Assembly: GCA_965370715.1 (NCBI GenBank)
Contig: CBDUVQ010000001.1
Span: 1 to 39,699 of the forward strand
Direction: 5' to 3'
DNA length: 39,699 nucleotides
Source of the DNA: an uncultured archaeon
Lineage (GTDB): Archaea; EX4484-52; B79-G9
The position numbers and the translations under genes were made by a program. Positions 14,939-35,715 of this stretch are shown in pieces. Position 1 is the first letter of the stretch, and each line of letters opens with the position of its first letter. The notes below the pieces were generated by a model. The model was not told the DNA's origin, searched no databases, and was given only the letters and a program-made list of their open reading frames with translations.

Positions 14939-17359
14939 ATGGACAAAACAAATGCTTTCATTTTGTGGTTTGACCAGCTCGGCATCGAGGATGTTCCGCT
15001 TGTCGGCGGAAAAAATGCATCTTTGGGTGAGATGTATAGAAACCTGTCTTCTCTCGGAGTAAAAATACCGAACGGTTTTGCCGTGACTTCAAAAGCATAC
15101 TGGCATTTTCTTGAAACAGCAGGAATAAAGGATAAAATACATGAAATACTTTCAGACCTTGACACGCGCAGCATAAAAAACCTTCGCGAGCACGGTGAAA
15201 AAGTGAGAAAAACAATATTGGCAGCAGAACTCCCTGATGACCTGAAGCAGGAAATTGTTGAGGCATATTCGCACCTTGAAAAGCAGTACAGCGAATTTGT
15301 TGATGTTGCAGTTCGCTCAAGCGCAACAGCAGAGGACCTTCCTGATGCAAGCTTTGCAGGGCAACAAGAAACATACCTCAATATAACAGGTCCTGAGTCA
15401 CTGGTTCTGGCATGTAAAAAATGCATTGCCTCGCTTTTCACAGACAGGGCGATATCTTATCGCGCAGACAAGAACTTTGACCATTTTTCTATTGCACTTT
15501 CAATCGGCGTTCAGAAAATGGTGCGCTCTGACCAGGCAACAAGCGGTGTGATGTTTTCAATTGATACAGAAAGCGGTTTTCAGGACGTTGTTGTAATCAA
15601 CGCAGCATATGGGCTTGGGGAAAATGTCGTGCAGGGTGCGGTAAACCCTGACGAGTATATGGTGTTTAAGCCGACACTTCTTAAGGGCAAAAGGCCTATT
15701 ATCTCAAAGTCTATTGGCTCAAAAGAGCAGAAGATGGTGTATACAACAGACGGGCGCCACCCGACAAAGAACGTGCCTGTGTCTGTTGCAGAACAAAAGT
15801 CTTTCGCGCTTTCTGATGATGAGATTCTCATGCTTTCAAAGTGGGCGTGCACAATCGAGGATCATTATTCCAAAAAGGCAGGGCACAAAAAGCCCATGGA
15901 TATGGAGTGGGCAAAAGACGGAGTAACAAATGAGATTTTCATTGTTCAGGCGCGGCCGGAAACAGTCCAGTCGCAAAAGGACAAAAATGTTATCAAAACA
16001 TATGTGCTAAAGCAAAAAGGAGACCTTCTTGTGGTAGGAACAAGTGTCGGCGATATGATTGGCAATGGACGCGCGCACGTCATAAAAAGCGTTCACAACA
16101 TTGATGAGTTCAAGAAAGGCGAGGTTCTTGTTACAGACATGACAGACCCTGACTGGGAGCCGATAATGAAGATAGCGTCTGCAATTGTCACAAACAGGGG
16201 CGGGCGCACATGCCACGCAGCAATAATATCGCGCGAGCTTGGAATCCCCTGCGTTGTCGGCACAACCACTTCAACTGAAAAAGTAAAGAACGGGGCAAAC
16301 GTAACAGTTTCGTGCGCAGAAGGAGAAGAAGGTTATGTTTACAAAGGAAAACTTCAATTTGAGATTCAGGAAATAAAGCTTGATGACATACCTCTGACAA
16401 AAACAAAAATAATGATGAATGTCGGAAACCCTGGACAGGCATTTGAGAACTCATTCATACCAAATGAGGGTGTCGGCCTTGCGCGCGAGGAGTTTGTGAT
16501 AAATTCCCATATAAAAATACACCCTCTTGCGCTCATACATTTCAGTAAGATAAAAAAGGATAAAAAAAACAAGGAATTGGTAAAAGAAATTGAAGAATTA
16601 ACACCCGGATACAAAAACAAGTCTGATTTTTTTGTTGACAAGCTTGCAGAAGGAATCGGTACGATTGGCGCTGCATTTTATCCTAAAGACGTCATAGTTC
16701 GATTATCAGATTTCAAATCCAATGAGTATTCAAACCTGATTGGAGGCACACTTTTTGAGCCGCATGAGGACAACCCCATGATTGGCTGGAGGGGTGCATC
16801 AAGATATTATTCTGATAAATACAGGGATGCGTTTGTTCTTGAGTGCAGGGCACTCAAAAAAGTAAGAAATGACTTTGGCCTCAATAATGTCAAAATCATG
16901 ATTCCGTTCTGCCGAACCGTTGATGAAGGAAAAGCTGTCCTGACAGAAATGAAAAAGAACGGCCTCAAAAAAGGAGAAAACGGGCTTGAGGTATATGTCA
17001 TGTGCGAAATTCCTTCAAACGTGATTCTTGCAGACAAGTTTTCTGAAATCTTTGACGGTTTTTCAATAGGCACAAATGACCTGACCCAATTGACACTGGG
17101 ACTTGACAGAGATTCTGAAATTGTCTCACACATCTATGATGAGCGAAACGAGGCAGTCAAGCGCCTGATTACAAGCGTAATAAAGACTGCAAAAGAAAAA
17201 AAGAGGAAAATCGGAATATGTGGGCAGGCGCCAAGCGACTTTCCTGATTTTGCCGAATTTCTTGTCGAATGCGGGATTGACTCAATTTCCCTGAACCCGG
17301 ACACTGTTGTTAAAACAAGGCTTAAAATTGCAGAAAAAGAGAAAAACCTGAAACTCTAA
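14939..17359 (+). CDS. ppsA: Phosphoenolpyruvate synthase (pyruvate, water dikinase)
   Basis: 806 aa with GGKNASLGEM, the phospho-His motif GGRTCHAAIISRELGIPCVVG, and a C-terminal PEP-utilising TIM domain (GFSIGTNDLTQL, CGQAP). Confidence 0.95.
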   Translation: MDKTNAFILWFDQLGIEDVPLVGGKNASLGEMYRNLSSLGVKIPNGFAVTSKAYWHFLETAGIKDKIHEILSDLDTRSIKNLREHGEKVRKTILAAELPDDLKQEIVEAYSHLEKQYSEFVDVAVRSSATAEDLPDASFAGQQETYLNITGPESLVLACKKCIASLFTDRAISYRADKNFDHFSIALSIGVQKMVRSDQATSGVMFSIDTESGFQDVVVINAAYGLGENVVQGAVNPDEYMVFKPTLLKGKRPIISKSIGSKEQKMVYTTDGRHPTKNVPVSVAEQKSFALSDDEILMLSKWACTIEDHYSKKAGHKKPMDMEWAKDGVTNEIFIVQARPETVQSQKDKNVIKTYVLKQKGDLLVVGTSVGDMIGNGRAHVIKSVHNIDEFKKGEVLVTDMTDPDWEPIMKIASAIVTNRGGRTCHAAIISRELGIPCVVGTTTSTEKVKNGANVTVSCAEGEEGYVYKGKLQFEIQEIKLDDIPLTKTKIMMNVGNPGQAFENSFIPNEGVGLAREEFVINSHIKIHPLALIHFSKIKKDKKNKELVKEIEELTPGYKNKSDFFVDKLAEGIGTIGAAFYPKDVIVRLSDFKSNEYSNLIGGTLFEPHEDNPMIGWRGASRYYSDKYRDAFVLECRALKKVRNDFGLNNVKIMIPFCRTVDEGKAVLTEMKKNGLKKGENGLEVYVMCEIPSNVILADKFSEIFDGFSIGTNDLTQLTLGLDRDSEIVSHIYDERNEAVKRLITSVIKTAKEKKRKIGICGQAPSDFPDFAEFLVECGIDSISLNPDTVVKTRLKIAEKEKNLKL

Positions 17360-17369
17360 TCTGATAAGC

Positions 17370-17377
17370 ATAATAAT
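17370..17377 (+). promoter_or_regulatory. TATA-like box (ATAATAAT) ~29 nt upstream of tRNA-Pro
   Basis: Its position relative to tRNA position +1 (17403) fits archaeal promoter spacing. Confidence 0.35.
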
Positions 17378-17402
17378 CTTTCTGCACAACATATCTTCAT
17401 CA

Positions 17403-17553
17403 GGGGCCTTGGGGTAGCTTCGCGCAATGCACACTGTTTTGCGCGCTACATTGGTATCCTTCCGGTTTCGGGGACCGGGGACCTGTGTTCAAATCATGCA
17501 ATTGCGTTGCAAACTCAAAGCCATCGCATGTGAAAGTCACAGGGGCCCCACCA
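17403..17553 (+). tRNA. tRNA-Pro (anticodon CGG) with two non-canonical introns and an encoded CCA
   Basis: Folded by eye. Acceptor GGGGCCU/GGGCCCC. Anticodon stem CCGGU/ACCGG with loop UUCGGGG. T-stem CUGUG/CACAG with T-loop UUCAAAU. Discriminator A plus CCA. The mature 76-nt form requires removing ~32 nt in the D-loop (about 17420-17451) and ~43 nt at the T-loop/T-stem junction (about 17494-17536). The D-stem has one G-U pair and one U-U pair. Confidence 0.85.
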
Positions 17554-17570
17554 ATTTATGAGGTGTAATT

Positions 17571-17900
17571 ATGCAACCAGTAATGAAGCAGGCACAACAG
17601 AATATAATGAAAAGTATGATACCGCCCATTTTCGCGGATGAAGCAGTGATAATAACTCCTGTTCGGGCAATGAAAGACAAAAACGGTAAAATAACAAAAG
17701 AAGGCCATGTGGTTGTTGTTTTTGTTGACATGACAACCCAGCAACCCGTCTCAAAAATTGCAATGACTATGACAACTGCAAAAAACCTTGAGCGCGCACT
17801 CACAAATTCTATAGGGCGCCTTGAAAAGGATCTCAAATCAAAGAACATTCCTACAAAGCCAATTGAAAAAACAGAAACTTCAACAAAATACATTGGGTGA
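17571..17900 (+). CDS. Small hypothetical protein, possibly DUF3467-like
   Basis: GAGGTG SD lies 7 nt upstream of the ATG. The pattern FADEAVIITP...VVVVFVDM...VSKIAMTMTTAKNLERAL loosely resembles DUF3467; the family call is tentative. Confidence 0.55.
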   Translation: MQPVMKQAQQNIMKSMIPPIFADEAVIITPVRAMKDKNGKITKEGHVVVVFVDMTTQQPVSKIAMTMTTAKNLERALTNSIGRLEKDLKSKNIPTKPIEKTETSTKYIG

Positions 17901-26631: not shown

Positions 26632-26718
26632 TGGTGCAGGGGAAGGGATTTGAACCCTCGAATGGACTAACCAACCGGGCCCTGAACCCGGCGCCGTTGA
26701 CCGCTTGGCTACCCCTGC
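26632..26718 (-). tRNA. tRNA-Leu (anticodon CAG), intron-less, with a long variable arm and an encoded CCA
   Basis: The reverse complement reads GCAGGGG UA GCCAAGCGGUCAACGGCG CCGGG UUCAGGG CCCGG UUGGUUAGUCCAUUC GAGGG UUCAAAU CCCUU CCCCUGC A CCA. Confidence 0.9.
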
Positions 26719-26954
26719 GTTTTTAATGAGCGAGTCCGAAATTGGTGTGCTCGCCTTACTTTCGGTGCGAGCCATTAAAAAGCTTGAAAAGCCCAACCAA
26801 TTGAACTTGTGGATCTTCATGACCTCAAAAGGGTGCCAATTGCATCATTTTTGAGGCATCGTATAGGGCGTTTGCTTTGTAAATTTAAAACACTTTGGCA
26901 ATCCTGTAAAACTCTTTACATTATTGTTCAAAGAACTAAGAAAAAACTTGGGCT

Positions 26955-31483: not shown

Positions 31484-32377
31484 TTGATGAAAATTGAGCA
31501 AAAAATCAGGGACATAAAAACCCTGAAAGTACAGGGCGCAGAAAACATTGCAAAGGCCGGTCTTCTCATCCTTCACGACTTTGCACAACAAAGCAAAAGT
31601 GATGATAAGAAGTTCGTGCGCGAGTTTCTCGCGCTCGCGAGAAAAGTTTCTCGCGCGAGGCCAACAGAGCCTGCGCTAAGGCATGAAATATTCTTTGTAA
31701 CAGAAAAAGTAAAGGTCTCCAAAACCCCGAAAAAAGATGCGATACTATTGTGCCGTTTCTACATCAAAAACATTGCATCCGTGAAAAAGAAAATCTCCCT
31801 GTATGGCTCAAGGAAACTAAGAAACAATGACGTCATAATGACGCACTGCCATTCTAACACTGTAATGGCAATATTTCGTGAGGCAAAAAAAAGCGGCAAG
31901 AAGTTTCGTGTCATTGTCACAGAGACGCGCCCGAAAATGCAAGGTGAGCGAACAGCAGCAGACCTTCTGCGAATGCGCGTGCCATTCATTTACGTGGTTG
32001 ACTCTGCAATGGCTCTCTTCATGAAACAGGCAACAAAAGTATTTGTAGGAGCGGACGCGCTGCTTTCAGACGGCTCTATTGTAAACAAGATAGGAACTGA
32101 GGCAACCGCTATTGTCGCAAAGGAATTCCGTGTGCCTGTGTTTTCCGCTGCCGGCACACACAAATTTGATGAAAAGACAATATTCGGTTTTGAAGAACCG
32201 ATAGAGGAACGCGACCCAAAAGAGATATGGAACAACAAAAAAATCAAAATATTGAATCCTGCATTTGACATAACTTCCGCAGATTATGTATCAGAAATTA
32301 TTACAGAGCGCGGTGTTTTTTCGCCGCATGCGCTTGCCGCACTGCTTTCAGGGGAGGCAATAAGCAATGTCCGTTGA
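31484..32377 (+). CDS. e2b2: eIF-2B alpha/beta/delta-family isomerase, most likely ribose-1,5-bisphosphate isomerase
   Basis: Family motifs THCHSNTV, VIVTETRPKMQGERTA, VGADALLSDGSIVNKIGT and NPAFDITSADYVSEIITERG. It shares an operon with form III RuBisCO. MtnA or a true eIF2B subunit cannot be fully excluded by eye. Confidence 0.75.
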   Translation: MMKIEQKIRDIKTLKVQGAENIAKAGLLILHDFAQQSKSDDKKFVREFLALARKVSRARPTEPALRHEIFFVTEKVKVSKTPKKDAILLCRFYIKNIASVKKKISLYGSRKLRNNDVIMTHCHSNTVMAIFREAKKSGKKFRVIVTETRPKMQGERTAADLLRMRVPFIYVVDSAMALFMKQATKVFVGADALLSDGSIVNKIGTEATAIVAKEFRVPVFSAAGTHKFDEKTIFGFEEPIEERDPKEIWNNKKIKILNPAFDITSADYVSEIITERGVFSPHALAALLSGEAISNVR

Positions 32378-32897
32378 GACTGAAGTCAAAATTAAGGTTG
32401 AAGACTTCAACCAAGTAAGAAAGAAGCTTTTAGAACTAGGTGCAAAGAAAGTATCAAAGGTGTTCGAGAAGAACACTTTGTTTGATGATGAGCAAAAAAG
32501 ACTAATAAAAAAAGACTGCCTGCTAAGACTGCGACATGACAAAAAAACAAAAATAACGTACAAAGGACCAAGACAAACGCACGACATGAAAAGCAGGGAA
32601 GAAATTGAGTTTGAAGTAGCAGATATTGCCAAAGCCGAAGTTCTTCTGAACCGGCTTGGGTTCAAAAAAACACTTGTTTATGAAAAAAAGCGCGAGACAT
32701 GGCGCTATAAAAACGTTGAGATTGTGCTTGATGAAATGCCATTTGGAAAATACATGGAAATTGAAGGTGGCAAAAAAGAAATTATCTCTTTCGCAAAGAA
32801 ACTCGGGTTTTCAAAAAAAGAGTTCATCACAAAAACATATTTTGAACTTGCAAAGGAAAAAGGAATAAAAAAAGATATTGTTTTCAAAAAAAGGTGA
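32367..32897 (+). CDS. CYTH-domain protein (triphosphate tunnel metalloenzyme; CyaB-like class IV adenylyl cyclase / triphosphatase family)
   Basis: N-terminal ExExK signature (VETEVKIKV), 176 aa, with the alternating charged beta-strand pattern typical of CYTH. It overlaps the isomerase gene by 11 nt. Its TGA stop is embedded in the AAGGTGA SD of rbcL. Confidence 0.75.
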   Translation: MSVETEVKIKVEDFNQVRKKLLELGAKKVSKVFEKNTLFDDEQKRLIKKDCLLRLRHDKKTKITYKGPRQTHDMKSREEIEFEVADIAKAEVLLNRLGFKKTLVYEKKRETWRYKNVEIVLDEMPFGKYMEIEGGKKEIISFAKKLGFSKKEFITKTYFELAKEKGIKKDIVFKKR

Positions 32898-32901
32898 TTT
32901 T

Positions 32902-34137
32902 ATGAAAGAATTAAGCTATATTGACCTGAAATACAAGCCGACAAAGAAGGATTTGATTGCAAAATACCGCCTTGAGCCAAGCGGGGTTTCATTTGAGGAG
33001 GCGTGCGAGCAGCTCGCAGCAGAGAGCAGCATAGGCACATGGACTGACATTTGTACCATGAGCCCGAAAATTGCAAAAAAGCTCAAGCCACATGTTTTTT
33101 CAATTAACAAAAAAAAGAATCTTGCAGAAATCGCATACCCTGAAGCGCTTTTTGAGCCGGGAAACATGCCCCAGATTTTGTCAAGCATCGCAGGAAACAT
33201 ATTTGGCATGAAAATTGTGAAGAACTTACGCCTTGTCGATGTTTCGTTTTCTGAAAAGCTCGGAAAATCTTTTCAGGGTCCTGCATTCGGAGTGTCCGGA
33301 ATCAGAAAACTCCTTAAAGTAAAAAAGCGCCCTCTTGTCGGCACAATAATAAAGCCAAAGGTTGGGCTTGATGAGAAAGAGCACGCAAAAGTAGCCTATG
33401 ACGCATGGGTTGGTGGGCTGGATATTGTGAAGGATGATGAAAACCTGACAGACATGTCCTTCAACCATTTTGAAAAAAGGGTTATTGAAACCCTCAAGCT
33501 TCGCAACAAGGTAGAAAAAGAGACAGGTGAGAAGAAAATATACATGCCGAATGTCACTGCAGAAACTGATGAGATGCTTCGCAGAGCCAGATTCGTGAAG
33601 AAACACGGCGGCGAATATGTGATGGTCGACATACTGACTCTTGGTTTTTCAGCCCTTCAGACGCTTCGAAAAGCAAACCTTGGTCTTGTACTTCATGCGC
33701 ACCGTGCAATGCACGCAGCGCTCACAAGAAGCGAGCGCCACGGGATATCGATGCTCGTCATTGCAAAGATTGCGCGCCTAATTGGCATGGACCAGCTTCA
33801 TATAGGAACCGCTTATGTCGGAAAGATGTCCGGCAGCGCAGACGAAGTCATTGATATAGAGCGCGCAATCAATGAAAAATCTTTTGGCATAAAGCCTGTT
33901 TTTGCAGTCGCATCAGGCGGCCTTCACCCGGGGCACGTTCCAAAGCTTGCAAAACGCATGGGAACAGACATCATCATGCAGTTTGGAGGGGGTGTGCACG
34001 GGCATCCTGACGGCACACGAGCAGGCGCTGCGGCAGTGAGGCAGGCAGCAGAATCAGTAATGAAAAAAGTTTCAATAAAACAATATGCTAAAACACATAA
34101 AGAGCTTGCAGGCGCGATTGAAAAATGGGGCTGCTGA
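32902..34137 (+). CDS. rbcL: Ribulose-1,5-bisphosphate carboxylase large subunit, archaeal form III type
   Basis: Catalytic positions are readable: ESSIGTWT, AGNIFGM, IIKPKVGL, GGLDIVKDDENL (carbamyl-Lys, Asp and Glu), LHAHRAMHAA, LHIGT..GKMSG, ASGGLHPG and QFGGGVHGHP. There is no small-subunit gene nearby. The start is set at the ATG at 32902, after AAGGTGA. Confidence 0.9.
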   Translation: MKELSYIDLKYKPTKKDLIAKYRLEPSGVSFEEACEQLAAESSIGTWTDICTMSPKIAKKLKPHVFSINKKKNLAEIAYPEALFEPGNMPQILSSIAGNIFGMKIVKNLRLVDVSFSEKLGKSFQGPAFGVSGIRKLLKVKKRPLVGTIIKPKVGLDEKEHAKVAYDAWVGGLDIVKDDENLTDMSFNHFEKRVIETLKLRNKVEKETGEKKIYMPNVTAETDEMLRRARFVKKHGGEYVMVDILTLGFSALQTLRKANLGLVLHAHRAMHAALTRSERHGISMLVIAKIARLIGMDQLHIGTAYVGKMSGSADEVIDIERAINEKSFGIKPVFAVASGGLHPGHVPKLAKRMGTDIIMQFGGGVHGHPDGTRAGAAAVRQAAESVMKKVSIKQYAKTHKELAGAIEKWGC

Positions 34138-34138
34138 G

Positions 34139-35551
34139 TTAGTCCACAACAATTTTTGAGGAAATGTTTTTTGTAATTTTTCCTTTTGAGTCTTTTGCAA
34201 GTATTTTTGCCTGCGGCAGGTGTATTTTTCCGACAACATCCAGTATTGGCTGGATTTTGTATGAAAATACGCGTTCCTCGCCATGCGGGATTTTCCCTAC
34301 TTTCCACACAATATCAGTTCCCGCAGTTCGTTTCTTTACCATTGACGGCTGGACGGTTCCGTATTTTTCAACAACAACAAACGCCGCAGGTACAAGATCC
34401 GAAATCTGAACCTCATCGAGCGTTTTTCTGCTGTTGTTCTTTATCTCAATATGAACTGTATGAACTGCATGCTCTGTCCCTTTGACAACCCTCTTTTTTA
34501 TTCCTGGCTTCTGCACCTCTCTTATGATGATAAACATGATTATTATTGCAAAAGCGACCACCAAAAGATGCATCCAATACATTACTTCATATCGAATAGT
34601 ACAGCTTTCATTCGGCGCAATCTCGCAGTGCCATACAAGCTTTTTCTGCCCGTCAATCCTTTCAACAAGCGGGGCTTTCTCAAAAATGTATGCGCTTCTA
34701 AGGAACGGGCTATCAATCATCACAGTCTCAGTTCCTTTCTCATTGCCGCTGTTTCTTATTGTGATCTCTGTCTCCCGGCCAAGAATCCCGCTCTCTACTG
34801 ACTCGTCTTTTTCAAAGATTGCCTTGGATTCTACGGAAAATGATGTTGTCGCAGTTCCGATTTTGTCCCCAAGCTCATTAATTACCTCAAGGTATGCGCC
34901 ATATATGCCGCTTGCAGAATACCGGTCAAAAAGAAACTCTTCAGTGAATATTCTTTCTTCATCAACTTCAAGAGCGGGAATGTCTATTGTGCGCTCTGCA
35001 CTGGTTGCACCAGACACCCTCATAAGCATGTGGCTTTTCTTTGACGTTGAAGTGCCGGTATTCTTTATTCCTATAAGAATCGTTATTTTTTCACCAATGT
35101 CGTACTTTGACTTTGACGGCTTGAATGTTGTTGTGTTAAGCCCGGACGTTGCAAGAACATACAAGACAACCTCGCTTTGGGTAAAAATATTCTGGTCTGT
35201 CTGGGACACTACATTGAAGTCAAATGTGTATGTGTCCTGGCTAGTGCCATAAGGCGGAGTTATGTAAAATACGACTTCTTCTGTCTTTCCACTTTCAATA
35301 TCAGCAGAAAACGTGTTAATTGTAACCCACGTAGTTTTTGCTCGCGCGCGTACGAATATGTTATATGTGTCTGCAACATCCTGTTTGTTTGTTATGCTAG
35401 CAGTGTATGTTGCTATTTTTCCGGCATAGACCGCGCTGCCGTCAGGAGTAATTGTTACAGAAAGAACATCAGTTTCTGCGCTTGCCATAGAAACCCCGGC
35501 TATCAAAAAGAAAATAACGGCAAATGTAAGACTTATTGACTGCCTGCTCAT
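34139..35551 (-). CDS. Secreted/membrane-anchored protein with CARDB/DUF11-like beta-sandwich repeats
   Basis: Signal peptide MSRQSISLTFAVIFFLIAGVSMASA. Repeated segments of the type TYxxxITNxG...ADTYNIFV. One internal TM helix (LLVVAFAIIIMFIIIREV). Trimmed from track end 35665 because the first 38 codons run through tRNA-Thr. The TATA-like TATTTATAA (35572-35580) lies 25 nt upstream of the ATG. Confidence 0.7.
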   Translation of the reverse strand: MSRQSISLTFAVIFFLIAGVSMASAETDVLSVTITPDGSAVYAGKIATYTASITNKQDVADTYNIFVRARAKTTWVTINTFSADIESGKTEEVVFYITPPYGTSQDTYTFDFNVVSQTDQNIFTQSEVVLYVLATSGLNTTTFKPSKSKYDIGEKITILIGIKNTGTSTSKKSHMLMRVSGATSAERTIDIPALEVDEERIFTEEFLFDRYSASGIYGAYLEVINELGDKIGTATTSFSVESKAIFEKDESVESGILGRETEITIRNSGNEKGTETVMIDSPFLRSAYIFEKAPLVERIDGQKKLVWHCEIAPNESCTIRYEVMYWMHLLVVAFAIIIMFIIIREVQKPGIKKRVVKGTEHAVHTVHIEIKNNSRKTLDEVQISDLVPAAFVVVEKYGTVQPSMVKKRTAGTDIVWKVGKIPHGEERVFSYKIQPILDVVGKIHLPQAKILAKDSKGKITKNISSKIVVD

Positions 35552-35602
35552 AGGCTTATAATGGATTCGTCTATTTATAATAGTTTCTTTCAGAAAATGT
35601 AA

Positions 35603-35715
35603 AGCCCCGGGCGAGATTCGAACTCGCGACCTTTGCCTTACCAAGGCAACGCTTTTGGCGGGCAATACTAAAATGATACAAATTCTTTACCCTCTACCGG
35701 CTGAGCCACCGGGGC
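35603..35715 (-). tRNA. tRNA-Thr (anticodon GGU) with a 40-nt intron in the D-stem/position 24-25 region and no encoded CCA
   Basis: The reverse complement reads GCCCCGG UG GCUC AGCCGGUA GAG [40 nt] C G UUGCC UUGGUAA GGCAA AGGUC GCGAG UUCGAAU CUCGC CCGGGGC U. The intron is about 35652-35691 in plus-strand coordinates (junction ambiguous by 1 nt). The exon sequence is a typical archaeal tRNA-Thr. Confidence 0.85.

Follow-up and report, generated by a model that had tools for sequence, protein, structure and literature searches.

The locus at positions 17403–17553 of the window (the window being the whole 39,699-nt stretch of DNA analyzed here) raises the question of whether it encodes a functional tRNA whose gene is interrupted by two introns, one in the D-loop and one in the T-loop. 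Left unspliced, it yielded no tRNA call by ARAGORN or by Rfam, the latter whether the gathering score or E ≤ 10 was applied. The initial annotation had proposed that a normal 76-nt tRNA-Pro(CGG) appears only once two segments are removed, and our in-silico splicing agreed: with both introns taken out, ARAGORN called the product tRNA-Pro(CGG), 73 nt long, or 76 nt with the CCA triplet that follows. The coordinates and pairings proposed for both introns proved exact when the sequence from 17250 to 17700 was read again. We consider it probable, at about 90%, that positions 17403–17550 of the forward strand represent a functional tRNA-Pro(CGG) gene of an ultrasmall, DPANN-type archaeon, with two BHB-type introns and an A/T-rich promoter of its own about 30 nt upstream. 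Splicing, the positions of the junctions and expression of the tRNA are what we infer from the DNA. The two-intron tRNA-Pro is a well-supported further example of a documented archaeal peculiarity and not a novel type.

Three exons are left after splicing, GGGGCCUUGGGGUAGCU, UGGUAUCCUUCCGGUUUCGGGGACCGGGGACCUGUGUUCAAA and UCACAGGGGCCCCA. They are colinear on the forward strand within 151 nt, which rules out a split or permuted tRNA gene. Exon 1 (17403–17419) provides the 5′ strand of the acceptor stem (G1–U7), U8, G9, the 5′ strand of the D-stem (G10–U13) and the D-loop nucleotides A14–U17, and is identical in all six variants of the gene that we compared. Intron 1 (17420–17451, 32 nt) follows U17 in the D-loop, at a site that by our own Sprinzl assignment is 17/17a. 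Exon 2 (17452–17493) continues with U17a, G18 and G19, the 3′ strand of the D-stem, the anticodon arm with anticodon CGG (17469–17471) followed by G37, the variable loop, the 5′ strand of the T-stem and T-loop nucleotides U54–A59. Intron 2 (17494–17536, 43 nt) interrupts the T-loop at 59/60, and exon 3 (17537–17550) completes the molecule with U60, the 3′ strands of the T-stem and the acceptor stem, and the discriminator A73. Direct reading of the spliced tRNA recovered the invariant positions U8, A14, G15–C48, G18G19, A21, U33, G37, G53–C61, U54U55C56, A58 and A73, as well as a 7-bp acceptor stem with G1–C72 and a variable loop of 4 nt. The D-stem is weak (G10·U25, G11–C24, G12–C23, U13×U22). 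The features by which a tRNA-Pro is recognized, namely an NGG anticodon, G37, A73, G1–C72 and a cloverleaf with its tertiary positions, are all present.

Just outside the gene, two short elements call for comment. On the 5′ side, a 17-nt BRE/TATA-like block, ATAAGCATAATAATCTT (17364–17380, forward strand), contains the TATA-like core ATAATAAT (17370–17377) about 30 nt 5′ of tRNA position 1. The block is invariant in 6/6 variants, with the bases on either side of it varying, and its placement and constancy lead us to take it as the putative promoter. On the 3′ side, the triplet at 17551–17553 had been described as an encoded CCA, a claim that did not survive the comparison with relatives: it reads CCA in this contig only, CTA in L009, TTT in L002 and L012, and TGT in L003 and L018. 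A genuine encoded CCA is unlikely here, and coincidence is the best reading of the triplet. In most relatives an array of a 104-nt repeat begins directly after A73.

Intron 2 displays every sequence-level element of a strict hBHBh′ motif, that is, 3-nt bulges, a 4-bp central helix, and both outer and inner helices. Its outer helix is the 5-bp T-stem itself (CUGUG 17483–17487 with CACAG 17538–17542), the central helix pairs UUCA (17488–17491) with UGAA (17531–17534), and the inner helix consists of five base pairs between CAUGC (17495–17499) and GCAUG (17526–17530). The two bulges, AA↓U (17492–17494) and AG↓U (17535–17537), where the arrow marks the predicted cut, each lie 3′ of their own helix strand, which is the canonical archaeal handedness. 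In geometry the intron is the T-loop counterpart of the canonical 37/38 intron: a stem serves as the outer helix, and nucleotides 1–4 of the 7-nt loop are base-paired to the intron. The 5′ bulge is made up of loop nucleotides 5 and 6 and the base that opens the intron, and the third base of the 3′ bulge is supplied by loop nucleotide 7. Imposing the BHB on the window sequence gave −14.2 kcal/mol, within 0.3 of the minimum free energy (MFE) of −14.5, and in L009 and L018 the hBHBh′-like structure was the MFE fold itself.

Intron 1 is of the relaxed kind. Its central helix H pairs GUAG (17414–17417) with CUAC (17446–17449), its inner helix h′ comprises seven base pairs (CGCGCAA 17421–17427 with UUGCGCG 17439–17445), and the 5′ bulge CU↓U (17418–17420) is closed. 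The 3′ splice segment AU↓U (17450–17452) has no closing outer helix: the GGUA that follows AUU has no pairing partner 5′ of GUAG, and G13 would face G18. Lacking an outer helix, the intron has its 3′ site in an open loop; it departs from the strict BHB in this one respect and conforms to the relaxed HBh′ definition in the nomenclature of Marck and Grosjean (PMC5829648, PMC3239211). The local MFE fold produced its helix-bulge-helix unaided in every variant. The initial description of the two introns, with a strict BHB for the T-loop one and a relaxed motif lacking the outer helix for the one in the D-loop, was borne out on re-reading, and the motif elements are kept in the variants. The proposal that the cuts fall between bulge nucleotides 2 and 3 at all four sites likewise held, as excision after the second bulge nucleotide at each site, the behavior of a BHB-type intron, gave the mature sequence of a canonical tRNA that ARAGORN identified as Pro(CGG).

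To compare the gene with its relatives, we reached the latter through close homologues of PpsA and of a 109-aa ORF, and through an exact-pattern scan of species-representative genomes. The gene order ppsA - tRNA - 109-aa ORF - HIT, in which the upstream neighbor encodes phosphoenolpyruvate synthase, is common to six distinct variants found in several assemblies, and both introns are common to all six variants of this shallow clade. The related assemblies are GCA_048635325.1, GCA_023139785.1, GCA_023140855.1, GCA_030635705.1 and JAFCBV01 (isolate AB_03_Bin_104), and the organisms occur in the source samples of, for instance, ERZ234985xx and ERZ25748485. Across the six, two of the 73 exon columns vary, and these two form a single compensatory T-stem pair (U52–A62 exchanged for A52–U62), position 52, which co-changes with 62, being the sole variable column of exon 2. 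The flanking DNA is 85–95% identical among the variants, so that the invariance of the exons does not stem from a lack of divergence. Exon and intron variability were compared within each of two groups defined by the version of intron 2 (see below), with Fisher p = 0.006 and 6.5e-5. The changes in the introns spare H, H′ and most of h′, and the overall pattern is thus one of constrained exons and of introns that are free to change except in their motif elements. In intron 1, which is 31–33 nt long in the relatives, 7/33 columns vary; the apical loop differs among them, indels included, and outside it only the last pair of h′ and nucleotide 2 of the 3′ site (AU↓U versus AA↓U) change. Its helices do not covary, because they are invariant.

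Among 185,579 species genomes, the exact-pattern scan matched three contigs only, all of them from this clade, and an exact 26-mer exon pattern had no match in JGI metagenomes. A degenerate pattern matched only an unrelated G+C-rich coding region and was discarded. PpsA relatives at about 75% identity (L004–L006) had lost the synteny and gave no orthologue, and the contig of L011, which carries a relative of the 109-aa ORF at 68% identity, ends before the tRNA.

How easily could a G+C-rich stretch be folded into a cloverleaf by chance, given a free choice of two deletions? BHB-like motifs are commonplace in random sequence: 'strict' ones numbered about 100–150 per strand in the window versus 81 ± 9 in shuffles, which we judged not to be an enrichment, and the counting of such motifs, about as common in shuffles, was dropped as a significance test. 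ARAGORN, in turn, tolerates many arbitrary excisions, as was evident when single segments were removed by brute force around a second intron-containing tRNA gene of the window, that for tRNA-Thr, and very many arbitrary deletions were accepted. Because of this permissiveness, we dropped an ARAGORN call alone as evidence and used a motif-guided pipeline together with shuffles. Sites entered the pipeline if two 3-nt bulges accompanied a 4-bp central helix (with at most one G·U), the inner helix had 4 bp or more and the intron measured 12–120 nt; they were spliced singly or in neighboring pairs, the products were passed to ARAGORN, and a call was counted only if the tRNA spanned all junctions. 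On the real window the pipeline returned one tRNA only, with introns 17420–17451 and 17494–17536 (plus a slipped register of intron 1). Under the same rules, 71,973 spliced candidates from 30 shuffled windows (1.19 Mb) led to no call, and neither did 1000 shuffled versions of the 151-nt gene with matched composition. These controls, along with the conservation and synteny across assemblies, effectively refute a chance origin of the cloverleaf.

A genuine tRNA ancestry would still be compatible with a pseudogene, a former tRNA-Pro that fell out of use once two insertions had inactivated it. The silence of the standard finders at the locus would fit such a history, and since of this genome the analysis covered the window, an intron-less tRNA-Pro(CGG) duplicate might reside elsewhere in it. 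We regard this as very unlikely: the exons are 100% conserved save for the compensatory pair while flanks and introns diverge, the promoter-placed 17-nt block upstream is invariant in 6/6 variants, and both insertions carry exactly placed splice motifs that are maintained even in intron sequence that has diverged to about 50%, none of which is expected of a decaying gene. The remaining alternative concerns the exact ends of intron 1, whose cuts are ambiguous by one nucleotide at both the 5′ and the 3′ end. In a slipped register, H would become UAGC/GCUA with the bulge UU↓C, positions 17421–17450 would be removed and the D-loop would be left with 11 nt; a one-sided shift by 1 nt is a further form of the same idea. 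RNAfold favors a 5-bp GUAGC/GCUAC helix with the bulge UUC, the slipped excision of 17421–17450 is the one from which the motif-guided pipeline also obtained a tRNA-Pro call, and U↓U repeats make the cut hard to place at the junction. However, the 3-4-3 rule with its 4-bp spacing fits only the register 17420–17451, and excision in that register gives a standard 9-nt D-loop, AGCUUGGUA. Moreover, nucleotide 2 of the 3′ site is U or A depending on the relative, as expected of an intronic bulge base, whereas the slipped register would place this variable base in an exon that is otherwise invariant. The slipped cut therefore appears improbable, if somewhat less so than a pseudogene, and we retain 17420–17451 as intron 1 of a functional tRNA-Pro gene.

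Intron 2 occurs in two versions, A (in the window, L002 and L003) and B (in L009, L012 and L018). They are 30–63% identical to each other, and both retain UGAA, a 3′ bulge of the form A-R↓U and an inner helix that is paired. Read in the same register, the inner helix changes from C–G/A–U/U–A/G–C/C–G in A to U–A/U–A/U×C/G–C/G·U in B, so that four of the five pairs change identity and at least four positions are still able to pair. In a slipped register, version B forms UUGG/CCAA with a 4-nt 5′ bulge, and in its MFE fold the 5′ bulge is likewise of 4 nt. Within the versions, 5/43 (A) and 9/43 (B) columns vary, all of them outside the central helix, and the only variable motif positions are the second nucleotide of the 3′ bulge in A and one inner-helix base in B. 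By count on the alignment, the centers of the intron in L003 and L018 are about 64% alike, and on this ground we read the versions as deeply diverged alleles and not as unrelated insertions. L018 is 95% identical to L012 on its ppsA side, and its 109-aa ORF is 100% identical to that of L003.

Tentatively, these observations could be combined into a broader scenario, which we think possible but would not favor. The T-arm and intron 2 would form a cassette that exists as two deeply diverged alleles (about 30–63% identity against 85–95% in the flanks), each tied to its own T-stem pair and shuffled by recombination among close genomes, of which L018 would be a mosaic. The clade would then offer a snapshot of rapid intron turnover or exchange at the fixed 59/60 site, and relaxed HBh′ introns may be cut in this lineage by an α4 EndA with the DPANN L3 loop rather than by an (αβ)2 or ε2 enzyme. 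A BLAST search against the window and the collected related sequence found no second copy of either tRNA-Pro intron or of the tRNA-Thr intron, and there is thus no evidence for intron transposition. No C/D-box motifs were seen by eye in the introns, which are too short.

The order of events in maturation can be outlined from the motifs and from the established archaeal pathway. A primary transcript starting at the upstream promoter would carry both introns. In it, T-loop nucleotides 54–57 (UUCA) would pair with UGAA of intron 2, the two 3-nt bulges presenting the scissile bonds, and G12–G15 would pair with CUAC of intron 1, followed by the 3-nt bulge and the 7-bp inner helix. Since G12–G15 and U54–A57 would be held in the central helices, the D-stem, the core formed by the D- and T-loops and the L-shape could not form before splicing; and because the L-shape would be absent until both introns are out, recognition of the motifs would have to be local. 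By analogy with the known pathway, EndA would cut after the second bulge nucleotide at the four sites, an RtcB-type ligase would join the three exons, RNase P and RNase Z would trim the ends, and a CCA-adding enzyme would supply the CCA.

As for the enzyme, no endA gene or tRNA-intron-endonuclease domain was found among the ORFs of the window (Pfam). The initial annotation had deduced from the introns an endonuclease of the α2β2 or ε2 type. This is too narrow: Kaneta et al. (2018) reported α4-type EndAs with an L3 insertion from several DPANN lineages rich in disrupted tRNA genes, and concluded that the subunit type contributes least to the substrate range of EndA (PMC5829648). What the gene predicts is a splicing endonuclease in this clade that can cleave relaxed motifs located beyond the anticodon arm.

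Descriptions of non-canonical and multiple tRNA introns go back to 2003 (reviewed in PMC4033280 and PMC4090602), and the known sites include 20/21, 22/23, 25/26, 29/30, 30/31, 45/46, 53/54, 56/57 and 59/60 (PMC4090602). The initial annotation had called the combination of a T-loop with a D-loop intron uncommon and a useful lineage marker, a claim in need of correction: position 59/60 is a documented major insertion site, also in the DPANN archaeon ARMAN-2, and for D-loop introns there are documented cases from Aeropyrum and Methanopyrus, with cleavage in vitro (PMC3239211, PMC3241643, PMC5829648). ARMAN-2, likewise of the DPANN archaea, shares with our case a proline tRNA interrupted by several non-canonical introns, one of them a strict hBHBh′ at 59/60 with the T-stem as its outer helix (PMC3239211). 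There, pre-tRNA-Pro(GGG) has introns at 53/54 and 59/60, the 59/60 intron of pre-tRNA-Cys(GCA) was cleaved in vitro, tRNA-Pro(CGG) has an unusually weak D-arm like that of tRNA-Pro(CGG) here, and the endonuclease is of the ε2 type (PMC3239211). In our case, by contrast, the second intron is an HBh′ that follows U17 in the D-loop instead of one at 53/54, the isoacceptor is CGG, and the lineage is another one.

For intron 1, the nearest likeness is pre-tRNA-Glu(UUC) of Methanopyrus kandleri, which also combines a relaxed HBh′ intron in the D-loop with another intron in the same pre-tRNA (PMC5829648). There, however, the partner intron is at the canonical 37/38 and not at 59/60, and the D-loop site seems to be near 20/21, as a fragment A21–G37 suggests, compared with after U17 here; the organism is a euryarchaeon whose (αβ)2 EndA lacks the specific loop (PMC5829648). 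The D-loop BHB intron of Aeropyrum pernix pre-tRNA-Thr2(UGU) was cleaved in vitro by (αβ)2 EndA without other factors, and the narrow-specificity α′2 EndA barely removes it (Hirata et al., 2011; PMC3241643). That intron has a full BHB and belongs to a crenarchaeon, whereas intron 1 has no outer helix. In Thermoproteales, as far as the work of Sugahara et al. (2008) is summarized in reviews, tRNAs have up to three introns, at non-canonical sites that include 22/23 and 59/60, with BHB, HBh′ or hBH motifs (PMC4033280, PMC4090602). They belong to another phylum, and according to the same reviews similar introns at different sites there point to transposition (PMC4033280, PMC4090602). Finally, the circularly permuted tRNAs of Thermofilum pendens and Cyanidioschyzon merolae have the same 59/60 junction, with the T-arm building the BHB (Chan et al., 2011; PMC3218864), in contrast to the colinear exons on one strand within 151 nt in our gene.

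Our understanding of tRNA splicing is left unchanged by this gene, and its value is practical. It adds the combination of a D-loop intron (after U17, HBh′) with a T-loop intron (59/60, strict BHB) in a DPANN tRNA-Pro, and its six natural variants show where in the introns constraint acts. Owing to non-canonical introns, ARAGORN or Rfam failed to give a correct call for two of the three tRNA genes of the 40-kb window, which gives a concrete reason why the tRNA sets of DPANN metagenome-assembled genomes look incomplete; Kaneta et al. (2018) had already flagged 'unidentified disrupted tRNA genes' (PMC5829648).

The second intron-containing gene, for tRNA-Thr(GGU), lies on the reverse strand (35715–35603). 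Its intron, 40 nt long (35693–35654), is at position 22/23, and its motif is again a relaxed HBh′: H consists of GGU/GCC plus a C×A mismatch, the bulge is AG↓A, the inner helix is GGGUAA/UUGCCC and the 3′ site is AA↓A. ARAGORN missed this gene, and the Rfam alignment (31 bits) covered no more than the 3′ two-thirds of it; once spliced, the 73-mer forms a clean cloverleaf. With a tRNA-Thr in the same window also bearing a non-canonical intron, the host plainly processes such introns.

The host itself is represented by a 42% G+C archaeal contig. Its archaeal genes include those for Nre, an XPD-like helicase, the flap endonuclease FEN1, form III RuBisCO and an IF-2B-like isomerase, and the named relatives of its proteins are DPANN (Altiarchaeota, Aenigmarchaeota, Woese-/Pacearchaeota and Nanohalarchaeota). 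The near-identical relatives carry the labels Bathyarchaeota, Aenigmatarchaeota and Nanohalarchaeota in their records, of which two or more must be wrong.

The 104-nt repeat is structured and occurs in the window beside tRNA-Leu (26720–26822). In the relatives it forms head-to-tail arrays of two to three copies directly after tRNA-Pro, and L009 has one further copy away from any tRNA. It has no Rfam match. Tandem Repeats Finder reported nothing for the array downstream of tRNA-Pro, because the copies are too diverged, and an nhmmer profile did detect them. In the consensus fold of the repeat, 17 of the 30 predicted pairs have compensatory changes.

The 3′ flank of the tRNA-Pro(CGG) gene was compared with that of its relatives (17551-17553 of the window against the sequence from 4630 of L002, 4000 of L003 and 3998 of L009 onwards), and is a hot spot for indels. 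The stretch from the tRNA to the ribosome-binding site (GAGGTG) of ORF109, the downstream reading frame, holds 0 to 3 units of a 104-nt repeat. The CCA at 17551-17553, which the initial annotation took as encoded with the tRNA, is unique to the window contig; CTA, TTT or TGT occurs in its place in the relatives. In the relatives, two to three diverged copies of the repeat form exact head-to-tail arrays that begin directly after A73 of tRNA-Pro. The repeat was found in L002 (4630-4829), L003 (4001-4302), L009 (4376-4479), L012 (1699-1905) and L018 (540-841), which share the order ppsA, tRNA-Pro, ORF109 and HIT, and also in L011 (30-129), a short contig with an ORF109 relative. It is absent after tRNA-Pro in the window, where a single copy (26720-26822, plus strand) abuts tRNA-Leu(CAG) (26632-26718, minus strand).

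Searching with a profile of the repeat using nhmmer gave E-values as low as 1e-30. The unit contains a hairpin some 22 bp long; the apical loop (..AUGCUCG..) is conserved, as is the tail (AAAAAGCUUGAAAAGC...GAUUUUCAUGAUUUUU), and 17 of the 30 pairs of the consensus fold show compensatory changes. No Rfam family matched it; it could be a MITE- or REP-like element or a structured small RNA.

The same neighborhood bears signs of exchange between relatives. L018 resembles L012 on the ppsA side (95%) and in the promoter (98%), its ORF109 matches the L003 one at 100% identity, and intron 2 of its tRNA-Pro, in the T-loop, is version B, with version A in L003. L018 is a recombination mosaic, and this pattern suggests that recombination is frequent in the population and that a breakpoint lies close to the tRNA-Pro 3′ end. 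An identical 26-nt tRNA-Pro exon segment is present in three assemblies, labeled Bathyarchaeota (L007, JAIVYS010000026.1, the same contig as L002), Aenigmatarchaeota (L008, JAGLMX010000046.1, with the tRNA-Pro variant of L003) and Nanohalarchaeota (L009, JAFCBV010000007.1). Flanking DNA, compared for L002, L003 and L009, is 85-95% identical, and for such near kin these record labels contradict one another.

ORF109 itself (17571-17900, 109 aa) starts 18 nt past tRNA-Pro. It matched no Pfam family, and its homologs make up only three clusters among 5.8 billion proteins, every one from the same clade; it appears to be a clade-specific orphan small protein.

A second intron-containing tRNA in the window, tRNA-Thr(GGU) (35603-35715, minus strand), was not called by ARAGORN in the unspliced window, and its Rfam match (31 bits) is partial, covering only 35603-35663. 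Once the 40-nt intron (35654-35693, minus strand), which interrupts the 3′ strand of the D-stem at position 22/23, is removed, the resulting 73-mer folds into a clean cloverleaf. The splice motif is a relaxed HBh′, with a central helix of GGU/GCC plus a C×A mismatch, an AGA bulge cut between AG and A, a GGGUAA/UUGCCC inner helix, and AAA at the 3′ site, cut between AA and A. The listed ORF 34139-35665 overlaps this gene, and its true start must lie further downstream. At 31484-34137, genes for an IF-2B-like protein, probably a ribose-1,5-bisphosphate isomerase, and a form III-like RuBisCO large subunit adjoin each other. The two are a nucleotide-salvage (AMP) pathway pair, which is common in DPANN genomes.
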